Assembly (NCBI GenBank): GCA_963838215.1
Contig: CAWIQG010000003.1
Coordinates: 320,240 to 384,239, forward strand
Length of the DNA stretch: 64,000 nt
Direction of reading: 5' to 3'
DNA from: an uncultured Bacteroidales bacterium
Lineage (GTDB): Bacteria; Bacteroidota; Bacteroidia; Bacteroidales; VadinHA17
The position numbers and the translations under genes are program-made. Numbering within the stretch: position 1 is the stretch's first letter; every line of letters begins with the position of its first letter. The notes beneath the pieces were generated by a model. The model saw nothing but the letters and a program-made list of their open reading frames with translations, ran no database searches and was not told the DNA's origin. Positions 7,902 through 19,114 of this stretch are shown here, piece after piece.

Positions 7902-8032
7902 CAATCTTTTCGCCTAAGCAGGATGGTTGATTTTTTGACAATTCTGTAACCATTAAATACTTTCTTTTTTGTTAAAAGGGAACTTTATATCACCTTTCGT
8001 GTTATTAGCTTTGTAGAATTATAATACATTAT

Positions 8033-9817: not shown

Positions 9818-9902
9818 TTCGCCCGCTATGGGGCTTTATGGGTAGCTTTCTTTATAAGCAGGGCGATGCCCATGCTTTAAAATAAATCAGGCCTACGGCC
9901 TG
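9818..9902. repeat. REP-like GC-rich hairpin cluster, copy a (modules M1-M2-M3)
   Basis: TTCGCCCGCTATGGGGCTT ... CAGGGCGATGCCCATG ... CAGGCCTACGGCCTG. Three short GC hairpins in an AT-rich background, with the same module order as copies at 12761 and 18871. Confidence 0.7.
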
Positions 9903-9913
9903 ATTTATTCCCT

Positions 9914-12009
9914 GTTGTGAATTGCTTTGGCTTCGCCGGGCTTCGCTTCGCTCCGGTTCAGTTTGTATCTTTGATATATTGAGCACAACATCGGCTCATG
10001 AGACTGCCGGATGGACTTCGTTGTGAATTGCTTTGGCTTCGCCGAGCTCCGCTTCGCTCCGGTTCAGTTTGTATCTTTGATATATTGAGCACAACGTTTG
10101 GTTTGTACTGCCATCGGTATTCAATGTTGTGAATTGCTTTCAGTTTGTATCTTTGATATATTGAGCACAACGCCTGTTGTTCCCTGTGAGCCACTCATGG
10201 CGTTGTGAATTGCTTTCAGTTTGTATCTTTGATATATTGAGCACAACTTTAATATATAGATAAAATCTACATATTGTGTTGTGAATTGCTTTCAGTTTGT
10301 ATCTTTGATATATTGAGCACAACTCTCCGGGAAATTGTACTTCCCAGTTTCAAGTTGTGAATTGCTTTCAGTTTGTATCTTTGATATATTGAGCACAACA
10401 ATCCGGGACAAAGAATGCTGCACTTTTTGGTTGTGAATTGCTTTCAGTTTGTATCTTTGATATATTGAGCACAACGGTTTCTAGAAGATGTTACGTTAAG
10501 TTTCGGCTGTTGTGAATTGCTTTCAGTTTGTATCTTTGATATATTGAGCACAACGCTGATTCCAAAGGAAGTACACGTTCATCTGTTGTGAATTGCTTTC
10601 AGTTTGTATCTTTGATATATTGAGCACAACAGCAGTTATGGAAGGTAATGCAGTTAGACTGTTGTGAATTGCTTTCAGTTTGTATCTTTGATATATTGAG
10701 CACAACTATTATATTCAGCATACCTTGGAGCATAACTGTTGTGAATTGCTTTCAGTTTGTATCTTTGATATATTGAGCACAACTCTATTGGTGGTTGTAC
10801 AACACCAGCACAGGTTGTGAATTGCTTTCAGTTTGTATCTTTGATATATTGAGCACAACTATGGTATCACTATCCCCGATGATAAAGTAGTTGTGAATTG
10901 CTTTCAGTTTGTATCTTTGATATATTGAGCACAACACTAGGAAGCTTATGAAACTGAGTTCCTTGGTTGTGAATTGCTTTCAGTTTGTATCTTTGATATA
11001 TTGAGCACAACCGTCAATGCGTAGGAAGTGCTTCATAGCGCGTTGTGAATTGCTTTCAGTTTGTATCTTTGATATATTGAGCACAACTCCGTCAGCGCTT
11101 ACGTGCAGCTGCACAACAGGTTGTGAATTGCTTTCAGTTTGTATCTTTGATATATTGAGCACAACTATATATTCAGCATACCTTGGAGCATAACAGTTGT
11201 GAATTGCTTTCAGTTTGTATCTTTGATATATTGAGCACAACAGCATTTGCAACTGGATTACTAGAATACGTAGTTGTGAATTGCTTTCAGTTTGTATCTT
11301 TGATATATTGAGCACAACTCAGTTGATGATTATATCCGAGGTGCAATGGTTGTGAATTGCTTTCAGTTTGTATCTTTGATATATTGAGCACAACTTTTAA
11401 ATTCATTTTCATTATTTCCGAATTGTTGTGAATTGCTTTCAGTTTGTATCTTTGATATATTGAGCACAACATGCTGGTGGAAGATCTAAGTTGCATTGAT
11501 TGTTGTGAATTGCTTTCAGTTTGTATCTTTGATATATTGAGCACAACTGAACTATCTCGTTACACGAATGATATGATAGTTGTGAATTGCTTTCAGTTTG
11601 TATCTTTGATATATTGAGCACAACTTTACACGATACAAGCAAAGGTAAGATATAGTTGTGAATTGCTTTCAGTTTGTATCTTTGATATATTGAGCACAAC
11701 TGATGGTGCGGCTTTAAATAACGATAGCTACGTTGTGAATTGCTTTCAGTTTGTATCTTTGATATATTGAGCACAACTGATGTGGCTATTGGTATGATGC
11801 GACGATATGTTGTGAATTGCTTTCAGTTTGTATCTTTGATATATTGAGCACAACGCACACAACCCTGACTCCTTCGACCTCGCAGTTGTGAATTGCTTTC
11901 AGTTTGTATCTTTGATATATTGAGCACAACTATGCAACATATAGGATCAGTTATTTCAAATTAGTTGTGAATTGCTTTCAGTTTGTATCTTTGATATATT
12001 GAGCACAAC
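9914..12009 (+). CRISPR. CRISPR array, type II-C-like: 27 repeats and 26 spacers
   Basis: The 46-nt repeat GTTGTGAATTGCTTTCAGTTTGTATCTTTGATATATTGAGCACAAC occurs 25 times. Repeats 1-2 (9914-9989, 10020-10095) are 76 nt because of a 30-nt insertion. Spacers are 30-33 nt. The plus-strand orientation is inferred from the tracrRNA anti-repeats and the terminator at 12085. Confidence 0.97.
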
Positions 12010-12114: not shown

Positions 12115-12133
12115 CATTCCTGTGGCCAGGTAA

Positions 12134-12222
12134 TTCGCCCCGTCAGGGGCAGAATAGATAAAACAGGGCAACGCCCTGTCTATAATGAAAACATATCAAT
12201 GTAGCCCCGTAGAGGGCGAAAT
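12134..12222. repeat. REP-like hairpin cluster, copy b
   Basis: TTCGCCCCGTCAGGGGC, CAGGGCAACGCCCTG (perfect hairpin) and an inverted M1, GTAGCCCCGTAGAGGGCGAAAT. Confidence 0.65.
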
Positions 12223-12303: not shown

Positions 12304-12750
12304 ATGTCGCAGTCTTTTGTCCAATTCTATGCCCATATTGTTTTTCATACAAAGAACAATATGCAACTAATCAGACCAGAAATCGAGGTTGAATTGTATT
12401 CATACCTTGGGGGTATTCTCAAAAACTATAAATCTAATCCGATCCAGATAGGCGGAACATCTGACCACATCCATATTCTGTGTACTTTACCAAAAACTAT
12501 GGCACCTGCTGACCTGGTGGAGGAGATTAAAAAGAGTTCTTCAAAGTGGATAAAAACAAAGGGAGAAAAATACCTGAACTTCTACTGGCAGGATGGTTAT
12601 GGAGGATTCTCTGTAAGCAGTTCAGGGTTGGAAGCTGTTAAGAAGTACATATTGACTCAGAAAGAGCATCATAAGAAGCTATCAGTAATAGATGAATACA
12701 AGAATCTTCTGGATGCGTACGGTATCCATTATGAAGATAGGTACCTCTGA
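12304..12750 (+). CDS. IS200/IS605-family Y1 transposase-like protein (REP-associated tyrosine transposase, RAYT-like)
   Basis: 148 aa. N-terminus YAHIVFHTKNN, HUH motif DHIHIL, FYWQDGYGGFSV, and a C-terminal Tyr region KKYILTQKEHHKK. Confidence 0.8.
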   Translation: MSQSFVQFYAHIVFHTKNNMQLIRPEIEVELYSYLGGILKNYKSNPIQIGGTSDHIHILCTLPKTMAPADLVEEIKKSSSKWIKTKGEKYLNFYWQDGYGGFSVSSSGLEAVKKYILTQKEHHKKLSVIDEYKNLLDAYGIHYEDRYL

Positions 12751-12760
12751 TCTTCTTCTA

Positions 12761-12870
12761 TTGCGCCCACTACGGGGCTTAATGTACAGGGTTGTGCAGT
12801 CGTCGGGTTGCACCCGACTTTCATCTATGTAAGGCCTACGGTCTTACCTGCCTTAGGGTAAAACCCTTTT
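12761..12870. repeat. REP-like hairpin cluster, copy c (M1-M2-M3 plus an extra hairpin)
   Basis: TTGCGCCCACTACGGGGCTT ... GTCGGGTTGCACCCGAC ... AAGGCCTACGGTCTT ... AGGGTAAAACCCT. Confidence 0.7.
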
Positions 12871-12888: not shown

Positions 12889-13230
12889 TTAGAACATCTC
12901 AAGTTGCTGGGGTGTTTCCGGACGTTTTGCCGGGTCTCTGCTACGAAAAAACTCCATCATACCGAACTGTTTATCGGTAAGCGTAAAGATTATTATCTCT
13001 CCTTTCGGAGCAAGAAATGACCTGACCCTTTTAATATGAACATCAGCATTTTCCCGGCTGTTACAGTGTCGTACATAAATTGAATATTGCAGCATCGTAA
13101 AACCGTCTTTCTGCAAAGACTTCCTGAATATTGTGTAGTTCTTCCGATCTTTTTTAGTTTCAGTCGGAAGATCAAAAAATACGAAAGCCCACATTATCCT
13201 GTATTGATTTAAACGAGATAGTTCTTCCAT
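12889..13230 (-). CDS. cas2: CRISPR-associated endoribonuclease Cas2
   Basis: 113 aa with the typical type II Cas2 N-terminus RIMWAFVFFDLPTETKKDRKNYTIFRKSLQKDGFTMLQYSIY. Lies directly downstream of cas1. Confidence 0.9.
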   Translation of the reverse strand: MEELSRLNQYRIMWAFVFFDLPTETKKDRKNYTIFRKSLQKDGFTMLQYSIYVRHCNSRENADVHIKRVRSFLAPKGEIIIFTLTDKQFGMMEFFRSRDPAKRPETPQQLEMF

Positions 13231-13247
13231 ATTCGTAAATCAGTTAA

Positions 13248-14153
13248 TCAGCTCATAACCGGATACATAATTTTCCGGGTCTCCCCGTCAAAACATGAAG
13301 CCAGAGAAGCCGTGGTACGTTGCACACCTACCATTAAGGGGCTGCTTTTCCCATCAATAACAACATCAATGACAGGAATCTGCAAAAGTCTTTTTTTGAT
13401 CTCAGGAGACAATTCTTCCAATTCCGGGATTTCCTGAATTATATCAAGCACCAGGGAATCAACATAGGGTCTGAATGGTTCCATAATATCGTCCGCGAGG
13501 CAATATGGATTATATTTATTCCGGTGATGAATTCCAATTGACGGAAAAAGACCTGATGCAATCAGTGACCGTGCAACTATTGCCCTAAGAACTGCATATC
13601 CATAGTTAAGAAGGTTATTTGGTGGTTCACCAAAACGGTGCCTCAAGAAAATTGCACCGCTGAAAAGATTATCCCAATAATATGCCGCAGCCCTGCCTTC
13701 GACATTTCCGGAATCTCCGCTTTTAACATCAGTAAGATAGAAATCCATTTTTTTCGTGTCAATTCCGACTCTTTTCAAGAGAGCTGCCTGGTTTTCAATT
13801 TTTGAAGTGACAGTCTGCTGCCAGAGATTCTTCATAAGAGGTTGTGATGCTTCAAGCTGAGAATACAGTTTTTCTGTAAATGCATGATGCGAAAACATGG
13901 GGAGCATTAAACCATAAGGCAAATGAGAAGTATCACAGCTTAATATGGCTGAATTATTTTCATTCAGTGCCATTATCAAAGCGTTACTGATAATTATCTG
14001 GGGATTGTCAAGTATGACCAGTCCTATGTCTTCAACCGGCACAGAATTATCTTCCTTACTTTCTTCTATAGGAAAACTGACCATCAACTGCATATCCTTT
14101 TTCCTGAGGGTACATGGATTACCGAAGTATAGTGTTCTTTTAATCATTGGCAT
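13248..14153 (-). CDS. cas1: CRISPR-associated endonuclease Cas1 (type II)
   Basis: 301 aa with Cas1 motifs GNVEGRAAAYYW, LNYGYAVLRAIVARSL, GIHHRNKYNPYCLADDIMEPFRP. Sits between cas9 and cas2. Confidence 0.93.
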   Translation of the reverse strand: MPMIKRTLYFGNPCTLRKKDMQLMVSFPIEESKEDNSVPVEDIGLVILDNPQIIISNALIMALNENNSAILSCDTSHLPYGLMLPMFSHHAFTEKLYSQLEASQPLMKNLWQQTVTSKIENQAALLKRVGIDTKKMDFYLTDVKSGDSGNVEGRAAAYYWDNLFSGAIFLRHRFGEPPNNLLNYGYAVLRAIVARSLIASGLFPSIGIHHRNKYNPYCLADDIMEPFRPYVDSLVLDIIQEIPELEELSPEIKKRLLQIPVIDVVIDGKSSPLMVGVQRTTASLASCFDGETRKIMYPVMS

Positions 14154-14243: not shown

Positions 14244-17200
14244 TTATTTGAAGATAATTTCTCCGTCAGGCTTGATTTCAAAGTCTTTACCTTCAATGGC
14301 ACAAGTAAAACAACTTGCAACAAGACATAAACGGGCTTGATACTTGTTGGGGTCAAAGCTATTATCTCCATTCCCAAGTTTTTCGTTTGGTCTAGCTTCG
14401 ATGTGGTTTTGTAAATATATAAAAGGAGTACCCATTTCATTAAACTTATACACTCTGTAAATTCTTTTTAATAAATCTTGTTTTGGCATATCTTTCAATT
14501 CGTTGATATCATTTGTATAAAAAATTACTTTTGTCCCAACTTTTATTATCGCATCAACAGGGATTTCTGTCTTGATTTTACCCCGACCAACTAAAATAGT
14601 TTTATAGTAGTTATCATTCCTAATATCTTCAGTATATTTAAGTTTGAGCATTGCTAGTTCATATAATCCTACCAATCTAAATGATCTTACCGTTTTGTCA
14701 CCTGTGGTTTTTTCATAATAGAGACAAAGTGTATTATCTTCATTTTGTGCATAAACAAAATGCTTATACTCTTTATCTTTAGATAGAAATGTATGCTTTC
14801 TAATTGGAATTGCTTTATTTGGTGTGAGATAACCTCGACCAGCAACAACTTTACATCTGACTTTCTTAATATAAGCTTTACCAGACGGAAATGGGATAGG
14901 TTCTAGTTTTGCTTGATCGAAAGTTTTCCCGGATTCCATCCTCTTTTCGAGTTCGCTTCTGATAATTTCACGAACTGCCTTATCAACTATATTTTTGCAG
15001 TCATTAATACTTGTAAATGTAGATACCGGATAACGCTCTACCAAACATAGTTGATCCTCAATTTTTATGGCTCCTAATAAACTCTCTTTATGAAGTTGCC
15101 CTCTGATAGAATCCCCTTTAGCAATTAAGGGAATTTTTTTGCCCTCTTTATCTACCTTATAATTCCACTTACCATCAGTATCTATAGATTTTACATATTG
15201 TTGAATGCCACGTTTCCGTATTTTTTTTATTGCTGGGATAAGAGTACTGTTTTTCGCCTGGTAGTTTATTAATACCTCATTATGAATAGATAAGACATAA
15301 TTAGCATTGAATCCATCCCAATCCATTACTCTTTCATGGTAGGTTTCATTTGATTCATTATCTTTAAACTCATTATATTTCATTAATATTTGGTCTCTAA
15401 TAGCTGCCGGCGGTATTAAAGTAAGAATTGCAGCATCAATTGCATGATGGCTATGCTTTTCTCTGTCTTTTTTCTCAACTTTTGGTTGAATCTTATATAT
15501 TTCTCTGAAGGAGGCAGTAATACTTCCTTTTTGGACTTCAACGCTTTTGAAGATCGTTCTTAAAAAAGGTAATGCGTATTTTGTTATTACCTGAGTGTCT
15601 TTTAATTGACTATTACGCCAACCGGATTTATACTCCTTACAGGTAAATGTATCTAACTTTTTACGCCAATAATCCAATTCAAATCTGATTAAATGTCTAC
15701 GTTGAATACAAGCATCCTTAATCTCTTTAGTTGAAGCAAACTTGGTTTTGATTTTCCATTCTTCTAATAATTTCTCTAAATGCTCAACTTTTTCTTCCAT
15801 GAATTTTAAACGAGGTTTTATTGGGGAATATTCTTTCCCGTTTATCATCGCATCGTTTTCGTAATTAGAACATTCACTAGGTAAATGTTTACCTTTTATG
15901 TTTATGTTATAATCTATTTCAGCGATTGTTAGATTTTTTAACTCATTATCAAAACTCATGCTTGCAGGAATAGTATGTTCAAAATTGAACTTTGAACCAT
16001 CAAATAATTCAGTACAATTTATAGTTTTTCCCGTATATAAACATCGTTGATTTTGTTCCATCCATAAACGATATTTGGTAATTATCTTGCTATCCTCAGG
16101 GTTGATAATCATTTTTGGATTGGCTTCAGCTATTTCGCGAATCTTTACTTTATATGAATCATTTTCTTTCTCCCTCTGTCTTTGCCAGGTTTCAATTGCC
16201 TTACGCATATTTGTGTCGTTTAATTCGCGTGCTATTTCAATGACCACACGTGTATTTTCATCAATCTTACCTGACTTGAGTAGATAATTCATTAGTTTCT
16301 TAAGTTCGTGCATTGTACGTAGTGCCATTGGGTTTTTAAAACCTCTACTAATAGGACGAGGGTCTCCCAATAGTTTAGTCGTGAAACCATCTTTCTGAAC
16401 ATTTGGATACTTTTTTATGAATTCATCCACTTTTTCTACTGGAATATAGGATTCTTTCCCATTTTGGATAAATTTTTGGTAAACAGCAGCATCAGTATAA
16501 GTCTCTTGTTCAGAAGGGTGCCATAAGTATTTAATGTTTTCGGAAGGAATATTGTAATATTTTCGCAAACCCTCAAAGATTTTATCGTGTAACCTGCTTG
16601 GTTTTAAAAATAGCGTTTCTTTTTTCGCATTAATTGGCTTTCTTAAGAACGAAAGATATGCTTTCTCAATATTTTGATAAATTAAGCTCCGTTTTTCATC
16701 ATTGATTTTTCCCAACCATGTTTTATTTCCAAAAACTTCAATTATTTTATTAGAAATATCCTTTTTGTCTTCATTATCTAATTGATAATCTTTAGCCATT
16801 CCAAAACGATACTCACTATTCAGTTGATCACTTATCAAACTATTGATAACCATATTGGTATTTATTTCTGTTTTATGATCTTTAATTATTTCTGAAATAG
16901 TTTCCACAATCTTATTGGCATCATCAAGAGTTATCTCGTTATTATTGACAACTTTATGCAGATTAGCCAGATAAACGGATTCGCTATACATAAAGCCTTT
17001 TTGAAGGTAAGGCAATATTTTCTTTATTGCTGAAAGACTTAAGGTTGCATATCCTTGTTGTAGATTTATTTTTGAAAATCTCTTTGCAGATTCCTCATCC
17101 AATTTTAACTTTTGCAAACCAAATTCTTTTAATTTCTCATTACTATCAAAACTGAACAGGACATGCCAAATATCACCAATAGAATAGTTACATATTTCTG

Positions 17201-18386
17201 GTTTATTTTTATTTTGCAGAATCTCATTCCATCCAAAATCTTCTTTCCAGTTATTGCCTAATATTTTTTCAAAATTGTTTAATAAGTTGCATGAAACCAC
17301 TTTTGTATCATTCGAGAATTTCGATTCAATTATGCCTCCTACCTTTTGTACTTGCTTGAGTATTTTAGTGAGCTTAATATCTCTTGATGAATTATAAAAT
17401 AAAGGGTAAATTTCATCATGAAGATATTTAATCTTGTCAACATTTTCAGGAAGTTTGATTTTAAGGTTATTTATAAACACCCACGTCCTAAATTCTTCAT
17501 ACATTGGGTGGCTAATAGGACAGCGAGGTTTATTTTTCTCAAAGGTACAGATTCCTACTAATCCTTTCTGACTTCGTAATGGTCGTTGCCAGATAATTGC
17601 TTTCCATAGTCTTGAATAATCATCTTCTGTTATTTTCTGAATTCGACAAATCTCTGTTAGTTCACGCTCATAATCTGTTCTCAGATTGTACCTTTTTCTT
17701 ATTCTCCCTCTCGAATCTTTTTGAATATGATAAAGAGCTGCACCCAATGTTTTGTATTTTTCAATATATGGAGCAATATCATCATGCCCCTGAGTTCCAG
17801 TTTTTTTACTTCCTTCCAAAATGGTCTTAGCCTCATTCGAATCATCAGCTCTTCCCCTGTATCCTCGTCGTTGAACTAATTGGTAAAAAATCCTTCCAAT
17901 AATATGTGGATTTTTAACAAATACGCTCCTGTCCTTTTCATTCTCACTAATTGCTTTGACTCGAAATATGTAATGACTCTCACCTGGTTCTGCATTAAAT
18001 AAATGAAAATCTGGTTTCAAATCTCCATCAAAATCAAACCTTAGCCATTGAATAAATTTTTCAGATTGAGGATATTCTCTTCCTTTCCCGATTGAGTAAT
18101 GTCTCCATGAATTTAATTCATCGATAGTGAGCGGACATAAGTTTCTTTCAATTAGAAACTCCAATAACTCCCATTTTCTGTATTTCTCTGCTTGATAGTT
18201 TCTCCTTTTACCTCTACTCTCAGTTCTTTTTTTTACAATTGGTATTTCGACCCCTTTTTCTTCACCTACTCCTTTCTCAAAGGTGAGTACACCTTTGTCA
18301 ATAATTTGGTTCTTTGAAACTGAAGAATCTCTTATTGCCCATCCAATTGAGTTACTCCCTAAATCTATTCCTATAATTTTTTCCAT
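14244..18386 (-). CDS. cas9: CRISPR-associated endonuclease Cas9 (type II-C, long Bacteroidetes-like form)
   Basis: 1380 aa. RuvC-I IGIDLGSNSIGWAI, Arg-rich bridge helix RTESRGKRRNYQAEKYRK, RuvC-II VVIEIARE, HNH CLYTGKTI...FEHTIPASMSFDNELKNL...N, and RuvC-III HHAIDAAIL. No csn2 or cas4 is present nearby. Confidence 0.97.
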   Translation of the reverse strand: MEKIIGIDLGSNSIGWAIRDSSVSKNQIIDKGVLTFEKGVGEEKGVEIPIVKKRTESRGKRRNYQAEKYRKWELLEFLIERNLCPLTIDELNSWRHYSIGKGREYPQSEKFIQWLRFDFDGDLKPDFHLFNAEPGESHYIFRVKAISENEKDRSVFVKNPHIIGRIFYQLVQRRGYRGRADDSNEAKTILEGSKKTGTQGHDDIAPYIEKYKTLGAALYHIQKDSRGRIRKRYNLRTDYERELTEICRIQKITEDDYSRLWKAIIWQRPLRSQKGLVGICTFEKNKPRCPISHPMYEEFRTWVFINNLKIKLPENVDKIKYLHDEIYPLFYNSSRDIKLTKILKQVQKVGGIIESKFSNDTKVVSCNLLNNFEKILGNNWKEDFGWNEILQNKNKPEICNYSIGDIWHVLFSFDSNEKLKEFGLQKLKLDEESAKRFSKINLQQGYATLSLSAIKKILPYLQKGFMYSESVYLANLHKVVNNNEITLDDANKIVETISEIIKDHKTEINTNMVINSLISDQLNSEYRFGMAKDYQLDNEDKKDISNKIIEVFGNKTWLGKINDEKRSLIYQNIEKAYLSFLRKPINAKKETLFLKPSRLHDKIFEGLRKYYNIPSENIKYLWHPSEQETYTDAAVYQKFIQNGKESYIPVEKVDEFIKKYPNVQKDGFTTKLLGDPRPISRGFKNPMALRTMHELKKLMNYLLKSGKIDENTRVVIEIARELNDTNMRKAIETWQRQREKENDSYKVKIREIAEANPKMIINPEDSKIITKYRLWMEQNQRCLYTGKTINCTELFDGSKFNFEHTIPASMSFDNELKNLTIAEIDYNINIKGKHLPSECSNYENDAMINGKEYSPIKPRLKFMEEKVEHLEKLLEEWKIKTKFASTKEIKDACIQRRHLIRFELDYWRKKLDTFTCKEYKSGWRNSQLKDTQVITKYALPFLRTIFKSVEVQKGSITASFREIYKIQPKVEKKDREKHSHHAIDAAILTLIPPAAIRDQILMKYNEFKDNESNETYHERVMDWDGFNANYVLSIHNEVLINYQAKNSTLIPAIKKIRKRGIQQYVKSIDTDGKWNYKVDKEGKKIPLIAKGDSIRGQLHKESLLGAIKIEDQLCLVERYPVSTFTSINDCKNIVDKAVREIIRSELEKRMESGKTFDQAKLEPIPFPSGKAYIKKVRCKVVAGRGYLTPNKAIPIRKHTFLSKDKEYKHFVYAQNEDNTLCLYYEKTTGDKTVRSFRLVGLYELAMLKLKYTEDIRNDNYYKTILVGRGKIKTEIPVDAIIKVGTKVIFYTNDINELKDMPKQDLLKRIYRVYKFNEMGTPFIYLQNHIEARPNEKLGNGDNSFDPNKYQARLCLVASCFTCAIEGKDFEIKPDGEIIFK

Positions 18387-18440
18387 ATGTTTGATTAAAA
18401 TTGTTATTAATGTCTTATCTTAAAAAAAATGTTATACCTT

Positions 18441-18526
18441 TACAACATTGAAAGCTTTTCACAATAAGGCTATAAGCCGAAGAAAATCTTAAACCCTGCG
18501 TACTCCGTGGGGTTTTTATTTTTTCT
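18441..18526 (+). ncRNA. tracrRNA candidate A (cas9-proximal, divergent from cas9)
   Basis: Anti-repeat TACAACATTGAAAGCTTTTCACAAT is complementary to repeat nt 1-24, with a 2-nt internal mismatch. It is followed by the nexus AAGGCTATAAGCC and the terminator AAACCCTGCG-TACTC-CGTGGGGTTT plus a U-tract. Ends are approximate. Confidence 0.6.
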
Positions 18527-18589
18527 TTCATTGATTAACGCCCATCCAATGCTGTTGTGATTAAAATTAAGTCCAAGTGCTGTTCCCAT
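18527..18589 (-). pseudogene. decayed 5' stub of a second (older) cas9 gene
   Basis: The minus strand reads ATG GGA ACA GCA CTT GGA CTT AAT TTT AAT CAC AAC AGC ATT GGA TGG GCG TTA ATC AAT GAA, i.e. MGTALGLNFNHNSIGWALINE. This matches the Cas9 RuvC-I consensus (LGLDLGTNSIGWA), with the catalytic Asp replaced by Asn. The frame then runs into the tracr-A terminator. Confidence 0.7.
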
Positions 18590-18620
18590 TTGAATATTTT
18601 TTAATCTTTTTCGTACATCT

Positions 18621-18707
18621 GTTCCAACTGAAGCAATTCACAATAAGGATTATTCCGTTGTGAAAACATTTAGGCTGCCCTCGTCCTTCAATACGGGGGC
18701 ATTTTTT
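18621..18707 (+). ncRNA. tracrRNA candidate B (cas9-distal)
   Basis: Anti-repeat CCAACTGAAGCAATTCACAAT is complementary to repeat nt 1-14 and, past a 1-nt bulge, to nt 16-20. It is followed by the nexus AAGGATTATTCCG (compare S. pyogenes AAGGCUAGUCCG) and the terminator GCCCTCGT-CCTTCAAT-ACGGGGGC plus ATTTTTT. Ends are approximate. Confidence 0.65.
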
Positions 18708-18870
18708 CACATAATCCGTTATTTTGCAGAACAAACTAAGTTAAACAAAATAATTTAATCAGAACTTTCTAAAATGAATAAAATATTCTGCAGATGCAGT
18801 AAATGATATACCAACCGCTGCTTTATCAGGATGATATAAGTAAAAACAAGTTCATTATATACCTTATTAT

Positions 18871-18956
18871 TTCGCCCCTACGGGGCTTATTGAATTTAAG
18901 GTTGGTAGTTACCGGGCGTTGCACCCGAGTTTCAAAATATTTCAGGCCTGCGGCCT
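18871..18956. repeat. REP-like hairpin cluster, copy d (M1-M2-M3)
   Basis: TTCGCCCCTACGGGGCTT ... ACCGGGCGTTGCACCCGAGT ... CAGGCCTGCGGCCT. Same orientation and module order as copies a and c. Confidence 0.7.
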
Positions 18957-19114
18957 TAAAAACTTTCCCAAAATCACTTATTTTTAAAAAAAAATCACGA
19001 TTGTTTAAAAAAAGTCTTAAAATCCGTGTCACAAAAGTGTAGTTTCCGACATGTAGTAATATATGCTCGTGCATGTAAAATATTTATTAATTATTTACCT
19101 TAAATTTTAAGACT

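Follow-up and report, generated by a model that had tools for sequence, protein, structure and literature searches.

A putative cas9 stub and two tracrRNA genes from different families beside one intact cas9: probable traces of effector replacement in a type II-C CRISPR-Cas locus of Bacteroidota

In the type II-C model that Zhang and colleagues reportedly drew in 2013 from Neisseria meningitidis and Campylobacter jejuni, the tracrRNA gene is divergent and promoters are embedded in the repeats. A more general principle, due to Makarova, Koonin and colleagues, is the modular shuffling of the adaptation and effector modules of CRISPR-Cas systems. Within the Bacteroidota, the canonical II-C arrangement is exemplified by Riemerella anatipestifer, in which a 16-nt anti-repeat, TGAAAGCAATTCACAA, lies upstream of cas9 (PMC5006608), and CoCas9 of Capnocytophaga ochracea belongs to another characterised II-C system (PMC10521337). 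Two further repeat-related RNAs deserve mention: the scaRNA of Francisella, which joins a repeat-like part to a targeting part, and tracr-L, the long tracrRNA of S. pyogenes, whose 5′ extension folds with the anti-repeat into a natural single guide directed at the cas promoter (10.1101/2020.05.21.102756; reviewed in 10.1101/2023.03.03.530964).

The locus considered here lies within a 64-kb stretch of DNA, analysed as a whole and referred to below as the window. Its only cas genes are cas9, cas1 and cas2, with no csn2 or cas4, as expected of type II-C; the Cas9 scores 315 bits against the model TIGR01865 (cut-off 100), and the sole additional gene inside the locus encodes an IS200-like transposase. 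The gene order is cas9-cas1-cas2-array, and the array is read toward the cas genes. A sequence-only reading had placed two tracrRNA-like genes, here A and B, on the plus strand upstream of the minus-strand cas9, each with an anti-repeat, an AAGG nexus hairpin and an intrinsic terminator; both their positions (18441-18526 and 18621-18707) and their full anatomy hold. That reading lacked the stub between A and B, the canonical family identity of B and the cognate status of A. The parts of the locus are as follows.

9914..12009, plus strand: CRISPR array, with 25 identical 46-nt repeats, GTTGTGAATTGCTTTCAGTTTGTATCTTTGATATATTGAGCACAAC, at 10126-12009, and two more
12889..14153, minus strand: adaptation module cas1+cas2, with a history different from that of cas9
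12889-13230, minus strand: cas2 (Pfam match)
13248-14153, minus strand: cas1 (Pfam match)
14244..18386, minus strand: cas9, 1380 aa, A-type Cas9 clade
18435-18442: -7-like box of A, TACCTTTA, at the box site of most A-type loci
18441..18526, plus strand: tracrRNA A, called from its anatomy, its folds and its adjacency to A-type cas9 homologues
18441-18465, plus strand: anti-repeat of A
18466-18478, plus strand: AAGG and nexus hairpin of A, GGCUAUAAGCC
about 18480-18490, plus strand: small hairpin of A, AAGA-AAA-UCUU
18491-18515, plus strand: terminal hairpin of A, with the U-tract running onward to 18526
18528..18590, minus strand: putative decayed 21-codon cas9 5′ stub, MGTALGLNFNHNSIGWALINE, between A and B
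18614..18707, plus strand: tracrRNA B including its -7 box (B as first placed: 18621-18707), canonical family member without its own cas9
18614-18621, plus strand: -7 box of B, impaired, TACATCTG
18624-18644, plus strand: anti-repeat of B
18645-18656, plus strand: AAGG and nexus hairpin of B, GGAUUAUUCC
18657-18664, plus strand: segment of B, GUUGUGAA
18676-18701, plus strand: terminator hairpin of B, with the U-tract running onward to 18707
18708..18757, strand unassigned: 50-nt block 3′ of the B terminator, 94% identical in L001

TAnnTTTG-type promoters are established in Bacteroidota, and each array repeat contains such a -7 box, TATCTTTG, when its sequence is read on the plus strand; the crRNA is therefore predicted to share its strand with A and B. 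The two cas-distal repeats of the array carry a 30-nt insertion. RNAcofold and duplexfold reproduce the pairing that had been drawn by hand: A pairs with repeat nt 1-8 and 11-24 (-25.5 kcal/mol), the duplex being interrupted at nt 9-10 by a UU/UU internal loop and having a single tracr base bulged out; in the duplex of B (-24.6 kcal/mol), repeat nt 1-14 and 16-20 are paired and U15 is bulged. Each RNA folds as a nexus hairpin plus a terminal hairpin, starts with UCACAAU-AAGG-hairpin-CCG, and ends in a terminator-like hairpin followed by a T-tract (five terminator-like sites occur in 1 kb against 0.7 expected). An exact 12-mer, TTCACAATAAGG, is common to A and B and occurs nowhere else in the window.

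To what extent does this complementarity exceed chance? By alignment score it does not: Smith-Waterman local alignment of the anti-repeats gives 31 and 26, within the maxima of 23 to 33 from 30 shuffles of the 64 kb. Scanning the whole window for duplexes with the repeat, by duplexfold with GU pairs allowed, did not make A and B stand out either, because wobble pairs add too much noise. Within cas9, at about 17751, a repeat-like match (score 28) looks like chance. We did not build the case on these scores; the significance of A and B derives from context (register at repeat nt 1, correct strand, adjacency to cas9, nexus plus terminator) and, above all, from the membership of each in a large conserved RNA family. 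Rfam 15 holds no family matching A or B and gave only sub-threshold CRISPR-DR49 matches in the array. Both families normally lie divergent from cas9, 40-200 nt from its start, so that the position of A near the cas9 promoter, earlier taken as a regulatory hint, is by itself no pointer to regulation.

First, B belongs to the canonical Bacteroidota II-C tracrRNA family, as its profile match shows. A covariance model, R1, built from the canonical B genes of 80 species, matches it over its full length with 74.8 bits (E = 2.7e-13; nhmmer score 65.5), the second-best match in the window being A with just 18.1 bits (E = 0.59), and B has each feature of the family profile, namely the anti-repeat GAAAGCAAWTCACAAT, the core AAGGATTATTCCGTTGTGAAAACATTTA, the GC hairpin and the U-tract. 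At least 120 GTDB species share the 20-nt core of B without a change, an invariance that follows from how the matches were ascertained. Among the matches listed, cas9 is detectable at 93 of 120 loci, with the B core upstream and facing away from it, and this cas9 is usually only about 25% identical to that of the window. The segment GUUGUGAA, 3′ of the nexus, is the only internal repeat-like 8-mer of B and is invariant across the family. The strong self-fold of B (z = -5.35), which sequesters the 3′ end of the anti-repeat with an internal GUUGUGA, is likewise common to the canonical family and no local innovation. The family context is a divergent position 40-300 nt upstream of an intact B-type cas9; B faces just a decayed stub and, its own cas9 being so reduced, is a member by sequence and an orphan by context.

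Because a sigma-70 promoter scan does not suit Bacteroidota promoters, -7 boxes were counted by the pattern TAnnTTT[GA]. Of 117 canonical B copies, 92 have such a box 28-50 nt 5′ of the nexus, as against 7 of 18 copies in tandem with A (Fisher p = 0.001). The window's TACATCTG stands at a proper distance, 31 nt from the nexus, with a single mismatch in its TTTG part (the mismatch-free form is TACATTTG). Given this near-consensus box, the full anti-repeat and the intact terminator, expression of the window's B is plausible.

Second, A appears to be the cognate tracrRNA of the window's Cas9 clade. It adjoins cas9 in every homologue fetched (59-86% identity), several of which have no B; it sits at the cas9 start in L001, L006, L007, L009 and L013, as well as in most metagenomic A loci, and in L008 it is inverted about 400 nt upstream of cas9. 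The A family comprises 104 distinct sequences, in which 5 of 13 predicted pairs show compensatory changes; in the terminal hairpin, one pair is GC in 47, AU in 44 and CG in 6, and the next is CG in 60 and UA in 42. The UU/UU loop might have marked A as degenerate or foreign, an idea that we reject: the mismatch at repeat nt 9-10 recurs in eight A-only loci having arrays, with the same geometry as in the window, and is a hallmark of the family.

Third, the 21 codons at 18528-18590, on the minus strand between A and B, read as the decayed 5′ end of a displaced canonical (B-type) cas9. The 57% identity over 21 aa to the N-terminus of the B-type Cas9 of L027 is weak alone (E = 0.064), and the call therefore draws on two further points: the stub fits the pattern MKKILGLDLGTNSIGWAL(I/V)(N/E) seen in 95 N-termini of B-type Cas9s, and it stands as far from B as is canonical, with 55 nt separating it from the B nexus. 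The RuvC-I motif of the stub has Asn in place of the catalytic Asp. Its DNA matches the cas9 5′ end of L014, and L138 and L236 have similar stubs, about 27 and 31 codons long. The intact Cas9 of the window is only about 24% identical to that of L027, and a tblastn search of the 64-kb window with B-type Cas9 found no second cas9, returning only the resident gene (24% identity) and the stub.

Fourth, cas9 and cas1-cas2 have discordant histories. After L001, the 86%-identity relative, the nearest Cas1/Cas2 pairs are those of L027, a B-type locus (68%/82%), and of L222 (68%/81%), an A-type locus with only 35% Cas9 identity to the window; the loci with the nearest Cas9s have Cas1/Cas2 only 52-57% identical. 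Even against L001, four-fold divergence is 0.27 for cas9, 0.53 for cas1 and 0.40 for cas2, and the cas9-cas1 spacer is unalignable. On the other side of cas9, the B scaffold is 97% identical between the two loci (74/76), as against just 53% for the stub and B-promoter region, and homology ends with the 50-nt block beyond the B terminator. With cas9 four-fold sites differing by 27%, the conservation of the B scaffold has P of about 1e-11 under neutrality, which suggests that B is under selection or that a recent recombination patch is present. This conservation, together with the full anti-repeat matched to the resident repeat and the intact terminator, speaks against B as a pure fossil.

Fifth, the arrangement recurs, and a swap of cas9 with its tracrRNA appears to have happened repeatedly across Bacteroidota. 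In a set of 88 distinct metagenomic A-type loci, the B core is intact in 12 and some B remnant survives in 19, always downstream of A on the same strand, which leaves at least 78% with no detectable remnant. The remnants start anywhere from position 3 to position 43 of the B profile, a graded 5′-truncation series, and closely related copies of A adjoin differing B subtypes. The search for loci with A only or B only, proposed at the outset, thus found both: A-only relatives, and canonical B loci, with an A relic in 0 of 118 of the latter. Two species of Chryseobacterium look like a natural before-and-after pair at one chromosomal site: Chryseobacterium sp. E1 has the 5′ end of a B-type cas9 (its frame open for just 62 codons) and B, the isolate Chryseobacterium sp. 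JK1 (NZ_JBODRU010000001.1) has an A-type cas9, A and a 5′-truncated B, and the two have a 2.1-kb flank in common at 84% identity.

Considering the family membership of the two RNAs and the stub between them, it is probable that a cas9+tracrA cassette replaced the resident cas9 and that B is left over from the displaced system. The ancestral locus would have been a canonical Bacteroidota II-C unit, in which B preceded a B-type cas9 in divergent orientation and cas1-cas2 came next, ahead of an array of GTTGTG... repeats, 46 nt each. The incoming cassette would have brought a distant cas9, about 25% identical to the B-type, and its own divergent tracrRNA, A; its left junction would lie in the cas9-cas1 spacer and its right junction within about codon 21 of the old cas9, so that the 21-codon stub, B, the adaptation genes and the array would be what remains of the old system. 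What would make the swap work is that one repeat family serves both Cas9 lineages. A fits the resident repeat in the family-typical way, with 8 bp predicted ahead of a 2x2 internal loop at nt 9-10 and about 14 bp beyond it; it is therefore most likely A:crRNA duplexes that the new Cas9 loads, and that Cas9 would thereby inherit the stored spacers. B would be primarily a fossil and, if still transcribed, could do little beyond pairing with the same crRNA repeats in competition with A. The mechanism of recombination, the use of A by this Cas9 and what B does now, whether idle or competing, are our inference, and the direction and number of the recombination events are suggested by the mosaic patterns. 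Of the options first raised, that both RNAs load, that one is a relic, or that one is regulatory, the relic is thus the best supported.

What else might account for the persistence of B? A clearly less probable but serious alternative is that B is kept by selection here, either as a second RNA partner or competitor that sets the use of the array, or because its core acts as a homology arm. In the latter variant, the ultraconserved B core would be one arm and the repeat family or the cas1 side the other, and the cas9+tracrA cassette could hop between canonical II-C loci and take over the spacer memories stored there. If B is under selection in either way, effector swapping with retention of memory would be a regular strategy of Bacteroidota and no accident.

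We think it unlikely that the one Cas9 uses both A and B, making two guide-RNA species from one array, even though the two duplexes are equally stable, the RNAs start alike and the B scaffold is conserved past the neutral expectation against L001. Beyond the nexus the scaffolds are unrelated, and the natural Cas9 partner of B is only about 25% identical to the window's. Fonfara and colleagues are said to have found in 2014 that tracrRNAs are interchangeable only among closely related Cas9s. Moreover, other tandem loci carry shortened forms of B, cut at the anti-repeat, the nexus or the 3′ end, and the absence of B from most A-type loci indicates that it is not needed.

Just as unlikely is a regulator or decoy role, in which B, unused for cleavage, would titrate crRNA repeats or Cas9 and so tune the incoming system. 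Its conservation in the window/L001 lineage and its complete anti-repeat would suit such a role, but the self-fold that hides the 3′ end of the anti-repeat is a trait of the whole canonical family, B is patchy across lineages with graded truncations, and its promoter box is lost in most tandem copies. The analogy once drawn with Francisella scaRNA and tracr-L is not supported: neither A nor B has a 5′ extension with a repeat-like and a spacer-like segment (no repeat-like segment lies 5′ of either anti-repeat in the sequences checked), nor has B a scaRNA-like targeting segment.

It is very improbable that B, intact, matched to the array and conserved beyond neutrality as it is, serves a B-type Cas9 encoded elsewhere in the genome and sharing this array, since the window holds no second cas9 and canonical B directly adjoins its own. 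Finally, origin of A and B from one tracrRNA gene by tandem duplication and divergence in place can be rejected almost outright: the common 12-mer and overall plan and the second rank of A under the B model are outweighed by the unrelated scaffolds, which had already been taken to exclude a recent duplication, the wide occurrence of the B core beside a different Cas9 lineage, the intervening stub, the Chryseobacterium replacement at one site, and the closely related copies of A beside different B subtypes.

Replacement of the resident effector, the reading we prefer, has several implications. Two Cas9 lineages about 25% identical, with separate tracrRNA scaffolds, meet on one family of 46-47-nt repeats, so that one effector could replace the other while keeping the array and probably the immune memory. 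A relic tracrRNA with a cas9 stub would be a readable footprint, present here in about one in five A-type loci, by which replacements can be counted and dated. Tandem loci offer natural test beds for the orthogonality of Cas9 and tracrRNA and for how two anti-repeats compete for a single crRNA pool. A caution applies to annotation and tool mining: choosing the best anti-repeat near cas9 would pick B, which has the longer perfect match, and hence what is probably the wrong scaffold for the window's Cas9. Limited full-text literature searches, incomplete in coverage and thus weak evidence of novelty, found no description of relic tandem tracrRNAs.

How, then, does the locus stand to the systems already described? 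It resembles the II-C loci of Neisseria and Campylobacter in its gene order, in an array read toward the cas genes with a -7-type box in each repeat, and in a tracrRNA that pairs with the 5′ part of the repeat; it differs in having two tracrRNA genes of different families with a cas9 stub between them. With the canonical Bacteroidota II-C loci, as in Riemerella anatipestifer, the window's B shares the anti-repeat consensus and the divergent position, whereas its cas9 is down to 21 decayed codons and the intact neighboring cas9 is of another lineage. Like scaRNA and tracr-L, the window has an additional repeat-related small RNA gene beside cas9, yet A and B bear neither hallmark, and B is a typical tracrRNA of its family. 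As in other cases of module shuffling, the histories of cas9 and cas1-cas2 are discordant and there is more than one tracrRNA candidate in one locus; here, however, the second tracrRNA would be the leftover of a replaced effector and not one evolved in place, and the replacement has left a footprint in the form of a gene stub and a graded series of truncations.

The window carries a type II-C CRISPR-Cas unit in which two plus-strand tracrRNA genes, A and B, lie upstream of a single cas9, separated by a short cas9-derived stub:

9914-9989 and 10020-10095: two cas-distal repeats beyond the 25-repeat array, each with a 30-nt insertion
10126-12009: CRISPR array, 25 identical 46-nt repeats (GTTGTGAATTGCTTTCAGTTTGTATCTTTGATATATTGAGCACAAC)
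12304-12750, plus strand: IS200-like Y1 transposase ORF (PF01797), between array and cas2
12889-13230, minus strand: cas2
13248-14153, minus strand: cas1
14244-18386, minus strand: cas9, 1380 aa
18441-18526, plus strand: tracrRNA gene A
18590-18528, minus strand: cas9 stub of 21 codons, translation MGTALGLNFNHNSIGWALINE
18621-18707, plus strand: tracrRNA gene B

The Cas9 scores 315 bits against TIGR01865 (cut-off 100); this intact protein starts MEKIIGIDLGSNSIGWAIRD. Every repeat, read on the plus strand, contains TATCTTTG, which matches TAnnTTTG, the Bacteroidota -7 promoter consensus; this embedded box fits with plus-strand transcription of the crRNAs, and it is as plus-strand RNAs that they could pair with both candidate anti-repeats. 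The insertions in the two cas-distal repeats (GC-rich, GGCTTCGCCGGGCTTCGCTTCGCTCCGGT, 97% alike) follow repeat nt 15 and fall within the stretch where both anti-repeats pair, which probably makes the crRNAs from these two units defective. REP-like multi-hairpin elements of ~90 nt (GCCCnCTAyGGGGC ... AGGCCTrCGGyCT) lie at 9818-9905, about 12125-12215, 12760-12846 and 18870-18960, confined within the window to the borders and interior of the CRISPR-cas island; with the Y1 transposase, they resemble a REP-associated transposase and its REP elements. In L001, a relative whose Cas9 is 86% identical, and in L002, a similar element occurs as 78-nt tandem copies between cas2 and the array. Inside cas9, 25 nt (17751-17775) are like repeat nt 18-42 in the same orientation, probably by chance, as their alignment score of 28 falls in the shuffled-control range.

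Both candidates described by the sequence-only reading are present, and its hand alignment of the two anti-repeats to the repeat is reproduced by cofolding. In the duplex with A, repeat nt 1-8 and 11-24 are paired on either side of a UU/UU internal loop and a single tracr base is bulged (-25.5 kcal/mol); in the duplex with B, pairing covers nt 1-14 and 16-20 and leaves U15 as a bulge (-24.6 kcal/mol). In A and B alike, the anti-repeat is followed by AAGG and a short nexus hairpin and then by a GC hairpin and its U-tract, and they have in common a 12-mer, TTCACAATAAGG, absent from the rest of the window. The concern that such complementarity might be mere chance holds for alignment score alone (31 and 26 over the 64 kb, against shuffle maxima of 23 to 33), and a wobble-tolerant duplex scan against the repeat was uninformative for either gene; the tracrRNA case rests instead on the register, strand and position of the two genes and most of all on the families to which they belong.

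Judged by its family, B is the canonical Bacteroidota II-C tracrRNA; its sequence makes it a member, but its surroundings leave it an orphan. Its 20-nt core, AAGGATTATTCCGTTGTGAA, scanned in one genome per GTDB species, occurs in at least 120 species, which among the matches listed belong to the Flavobacteriales, Bacteroidales, Chitinophagales, Cytophagales, Sphingobacteriales and Saprospiraceae. Among these listed matches, cas9 is detectable at 93 of 120 loci, with the core upstream and pointing away from it, is usually only ~25% identical to the window's, and starts 22-303 nt from the nexus (95 loci with a callable start). An 80-species alignment (A1) yields the consensus (T)GAAAGCAAWTCACAAT-AAGGATTATTCCGTTGTGAAAACATTTA-GC hairpin-U tract, and the covariance model from the 80-sequence alignment scores window B at 74.8 bits (E = 2.7e-13) and A at only 18.1 bits (E = 0.59). 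Membership is further supported by Riemerella anatipestifer, where the anti-repeat of B was reported upstream of cas9 (PMC5006608). In canonical B-type tracrRNAs, the anti-repeat 3' end, UCACAAU, is complementary to GUUGUGA right after the nexus hairpin (window 18637-18664), an internal copy of repeat nt 1-7; in the predicted fold, free B RNA ties up its own anti-repeat (z = -5.35), and both segments are invariant in A1, hence without covariation signal.

A, on comparative grounds, is the cognate tracrRNA of the window's Cas9 clade. An A-type gene lies upstream of cas9 in every Cas9 homologue placeable in context (n = 5; L001, 86% identity; L009, 71%; L006, 67%; L007, 61%; L008, 59%), directly adjoining the cas9 start in L001, L009, L006 and L007, and inverted ~400 nt upstream in L008 (7568-7652); intact B is missing from several of the five. 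Beside the L008 cas9 start (7930-7960) lies an orphan anti-repeat-like sequence, aataattgaaagcaaatcacaac, without nexus. A metagenome pattern scan added 117 A-type loci, whose Cas9s are ~30% to 86% identical to the window's. Across 104 distinct aligned A sequences the nexus is invariant, and the terminal hairpin shows compensatory changes (GC 47 / AU 44 / CG 6 at one pair, CG 60 / UA 42 at the next). At eight A-only loci with visible arrays, repeat nt 1-8 are paired, nt 9-10 mismatched and pairing resumes at nt 11, making the UU/UU loop singled out earlier a hallmark of the A family; it resembles the bulge in other Cas9 guide duplexes. One A-type gene (L173, 4836-4921) has a tandemly duplicated nexus segment (AAGGCTATAAGCC AAGGCTATAAGCCGAAGA).

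Four lines of evidence point to effector-module replacement as the origin of A and B side by side: a footprint that recurs at other loci, a pair of Chryseobacterium species, cas1-cas2 relationships at odds with cas9, and the match of the B anti-repeat to the resident array. The stub lying between the two genes reads, by its residues, as the RuvC-I motif from a Cas9 N-terminus, with the catalytic Asp lost. It agrees with the pattern MKKILGLDLGTNSIGWAL(I/V)(N/E), found in 95 canonical B-type cas9 genes among the matches listed, it matches, at the DNA level, the start of cas9 in a Flavobacterium locus, and its 55 nt from the B nexus lie inside the canonical range; its match to the Cas9 N-terminus of L027, a canonical B-type locus, is weak by itself (57% over 21 residues, E = 0.064). 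The unit of a leftward cas9 5' end and a rightward tracrRNA is thus present twice, intact with A and ruined with B.

The cas1-cas2 relationships of the window do not parallel those of cas9. After L001, its Cas1/Cas2 are nearest to those of L027 (68%/82%), which also has the terminator subtype of window B, and to those of L222 (68%/81%), an A-type locus with just 35% Cas9 identity to the window; for the loci whose Cas9s rank nearest, Cas1/Cas2 identity is no more than 52-57%. Differences from L001 at four-fold sites (cas9 0.27, cas1 0.53, cas2 0.40), together with an unalignable cas9-cas1 spacer, place a module boundary between cas9 and cas1. The B anti-repeat matches the repeat of the resident array, the CAGUU segment (nt 16-20) included, as would be expected of the array's original partner.

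The same footprint recurs elsewhere. Among distinct metagenomic A-type loci with enough sequence, 12/88 hold an intact B core and 19/88 some B remnant, in every case on the strand of A and downstream of it; the suggested search for loci with only A or only B found both kinds, at least 78% of A-type loci having no detectable B remnant. Remnants begin at B-profile positions 3 to 43. Full copies retain a cas9 stub in L138 (about 27 codons) and L236 (about 31 codons), and the series continues through copies cut in the intergenic region, in the anti-repeat (L013, L007) or in the nexus (L133, L142, L218) to bare terminator hairpins (L180, L223, L194, L164); L157 is cut on the 3' side. Since closely related A genes adjoin differing B subtypes (e.g., L151 versus L178 and L160, L241 and L231), replacement events appear to be multiple. 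Two Chryseobacterium species have a 2.1 kb common flank (84% identity): E1 carries B and a B-type cas9 start, whose frame is open for only 62 codons and which may therefore be disrupted, and JK1 carries A next to an A-type cas9 with 48% identity to that of the window, together with a B truncated within the anti-repeat. No A relic was seen in canonical B loci (0/118 among the matches listed). L220/L230 show a mirror order (about 2113-2450 in L220) of cas9 start, degenerate B-like tracrRNA, short cas9 stub (MKRILGLDLGINN...) and A-type tracrRNA, a hint that A, too, can be left behind by replacement as the outer relic.

Whether B is still active is a separate matter. Evidence for decay comes from the few A-type loci with a remnant, the truncations to every degree elsewhere and the lost promoter boxes: TAnnTTT[GA] stands at the canonical distance in 7/18 tandem B versus 92/117 canonical copies (among the matches listed; Fisher p = 0.001), and window B has TACATCTG, one mismatch from consensus. 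The B scaffold is nevertheless 74/76 identical between the window and L001, and the 50 AT-rich nt after its terminator (18708-18757) 47/50 (94%), against 53% for the stub and B-promoter segment and 73% for cas9 four-fold sites; under neutrality such conservation has a probability of about 1e-11. It reflects either purifying selection on B in the window/L001 lineage or a patch of recent recombination with its left border in the conserved anti-repeat of B. Around 18708-18757, neighbouring neutral sequence has diverged ~27-47%, and window-L001 homology stops exactly at this block. A transcribed B would, in the simplest case, compete with A for one and the same set of crRNA repeats.

The observation of two tandem tracrRNA-like genes is thus confirmed, and its interpretation partly supported: of the three options offered (both load, one is a relic, one is regulatory), B as a relic is best supported, and effector replacement most likely accounts for how the two genes came together. 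The mechanism would be ordinary recombination, and module shuffling in CRISPR-Cas evolution is established; in limited literature searches, nothing turned up that describes a relic tracrRNA and a cas9 stub as the trace left when cas9-tracrRNA cassettes repeatedly replace one another and the array stays. One Cas9 lineage taking over another's arrays, and the puzzle of B's conservation, are worth experiment. The analogy with Francisella scaRNA and the long S. pyogenes tracrRNA (tracr-L) behind the regulatory option finds no support, as the defining parts of both RNAs are absent from A and B; a divergent position close to where cas9 begins is usual for the A and B families alike. The locus as a whole, as far as sequence tells, would work like the II-C type of Neisseria and Campylobacter, with repeat-embedded promoters and a divergent tracrRNA.
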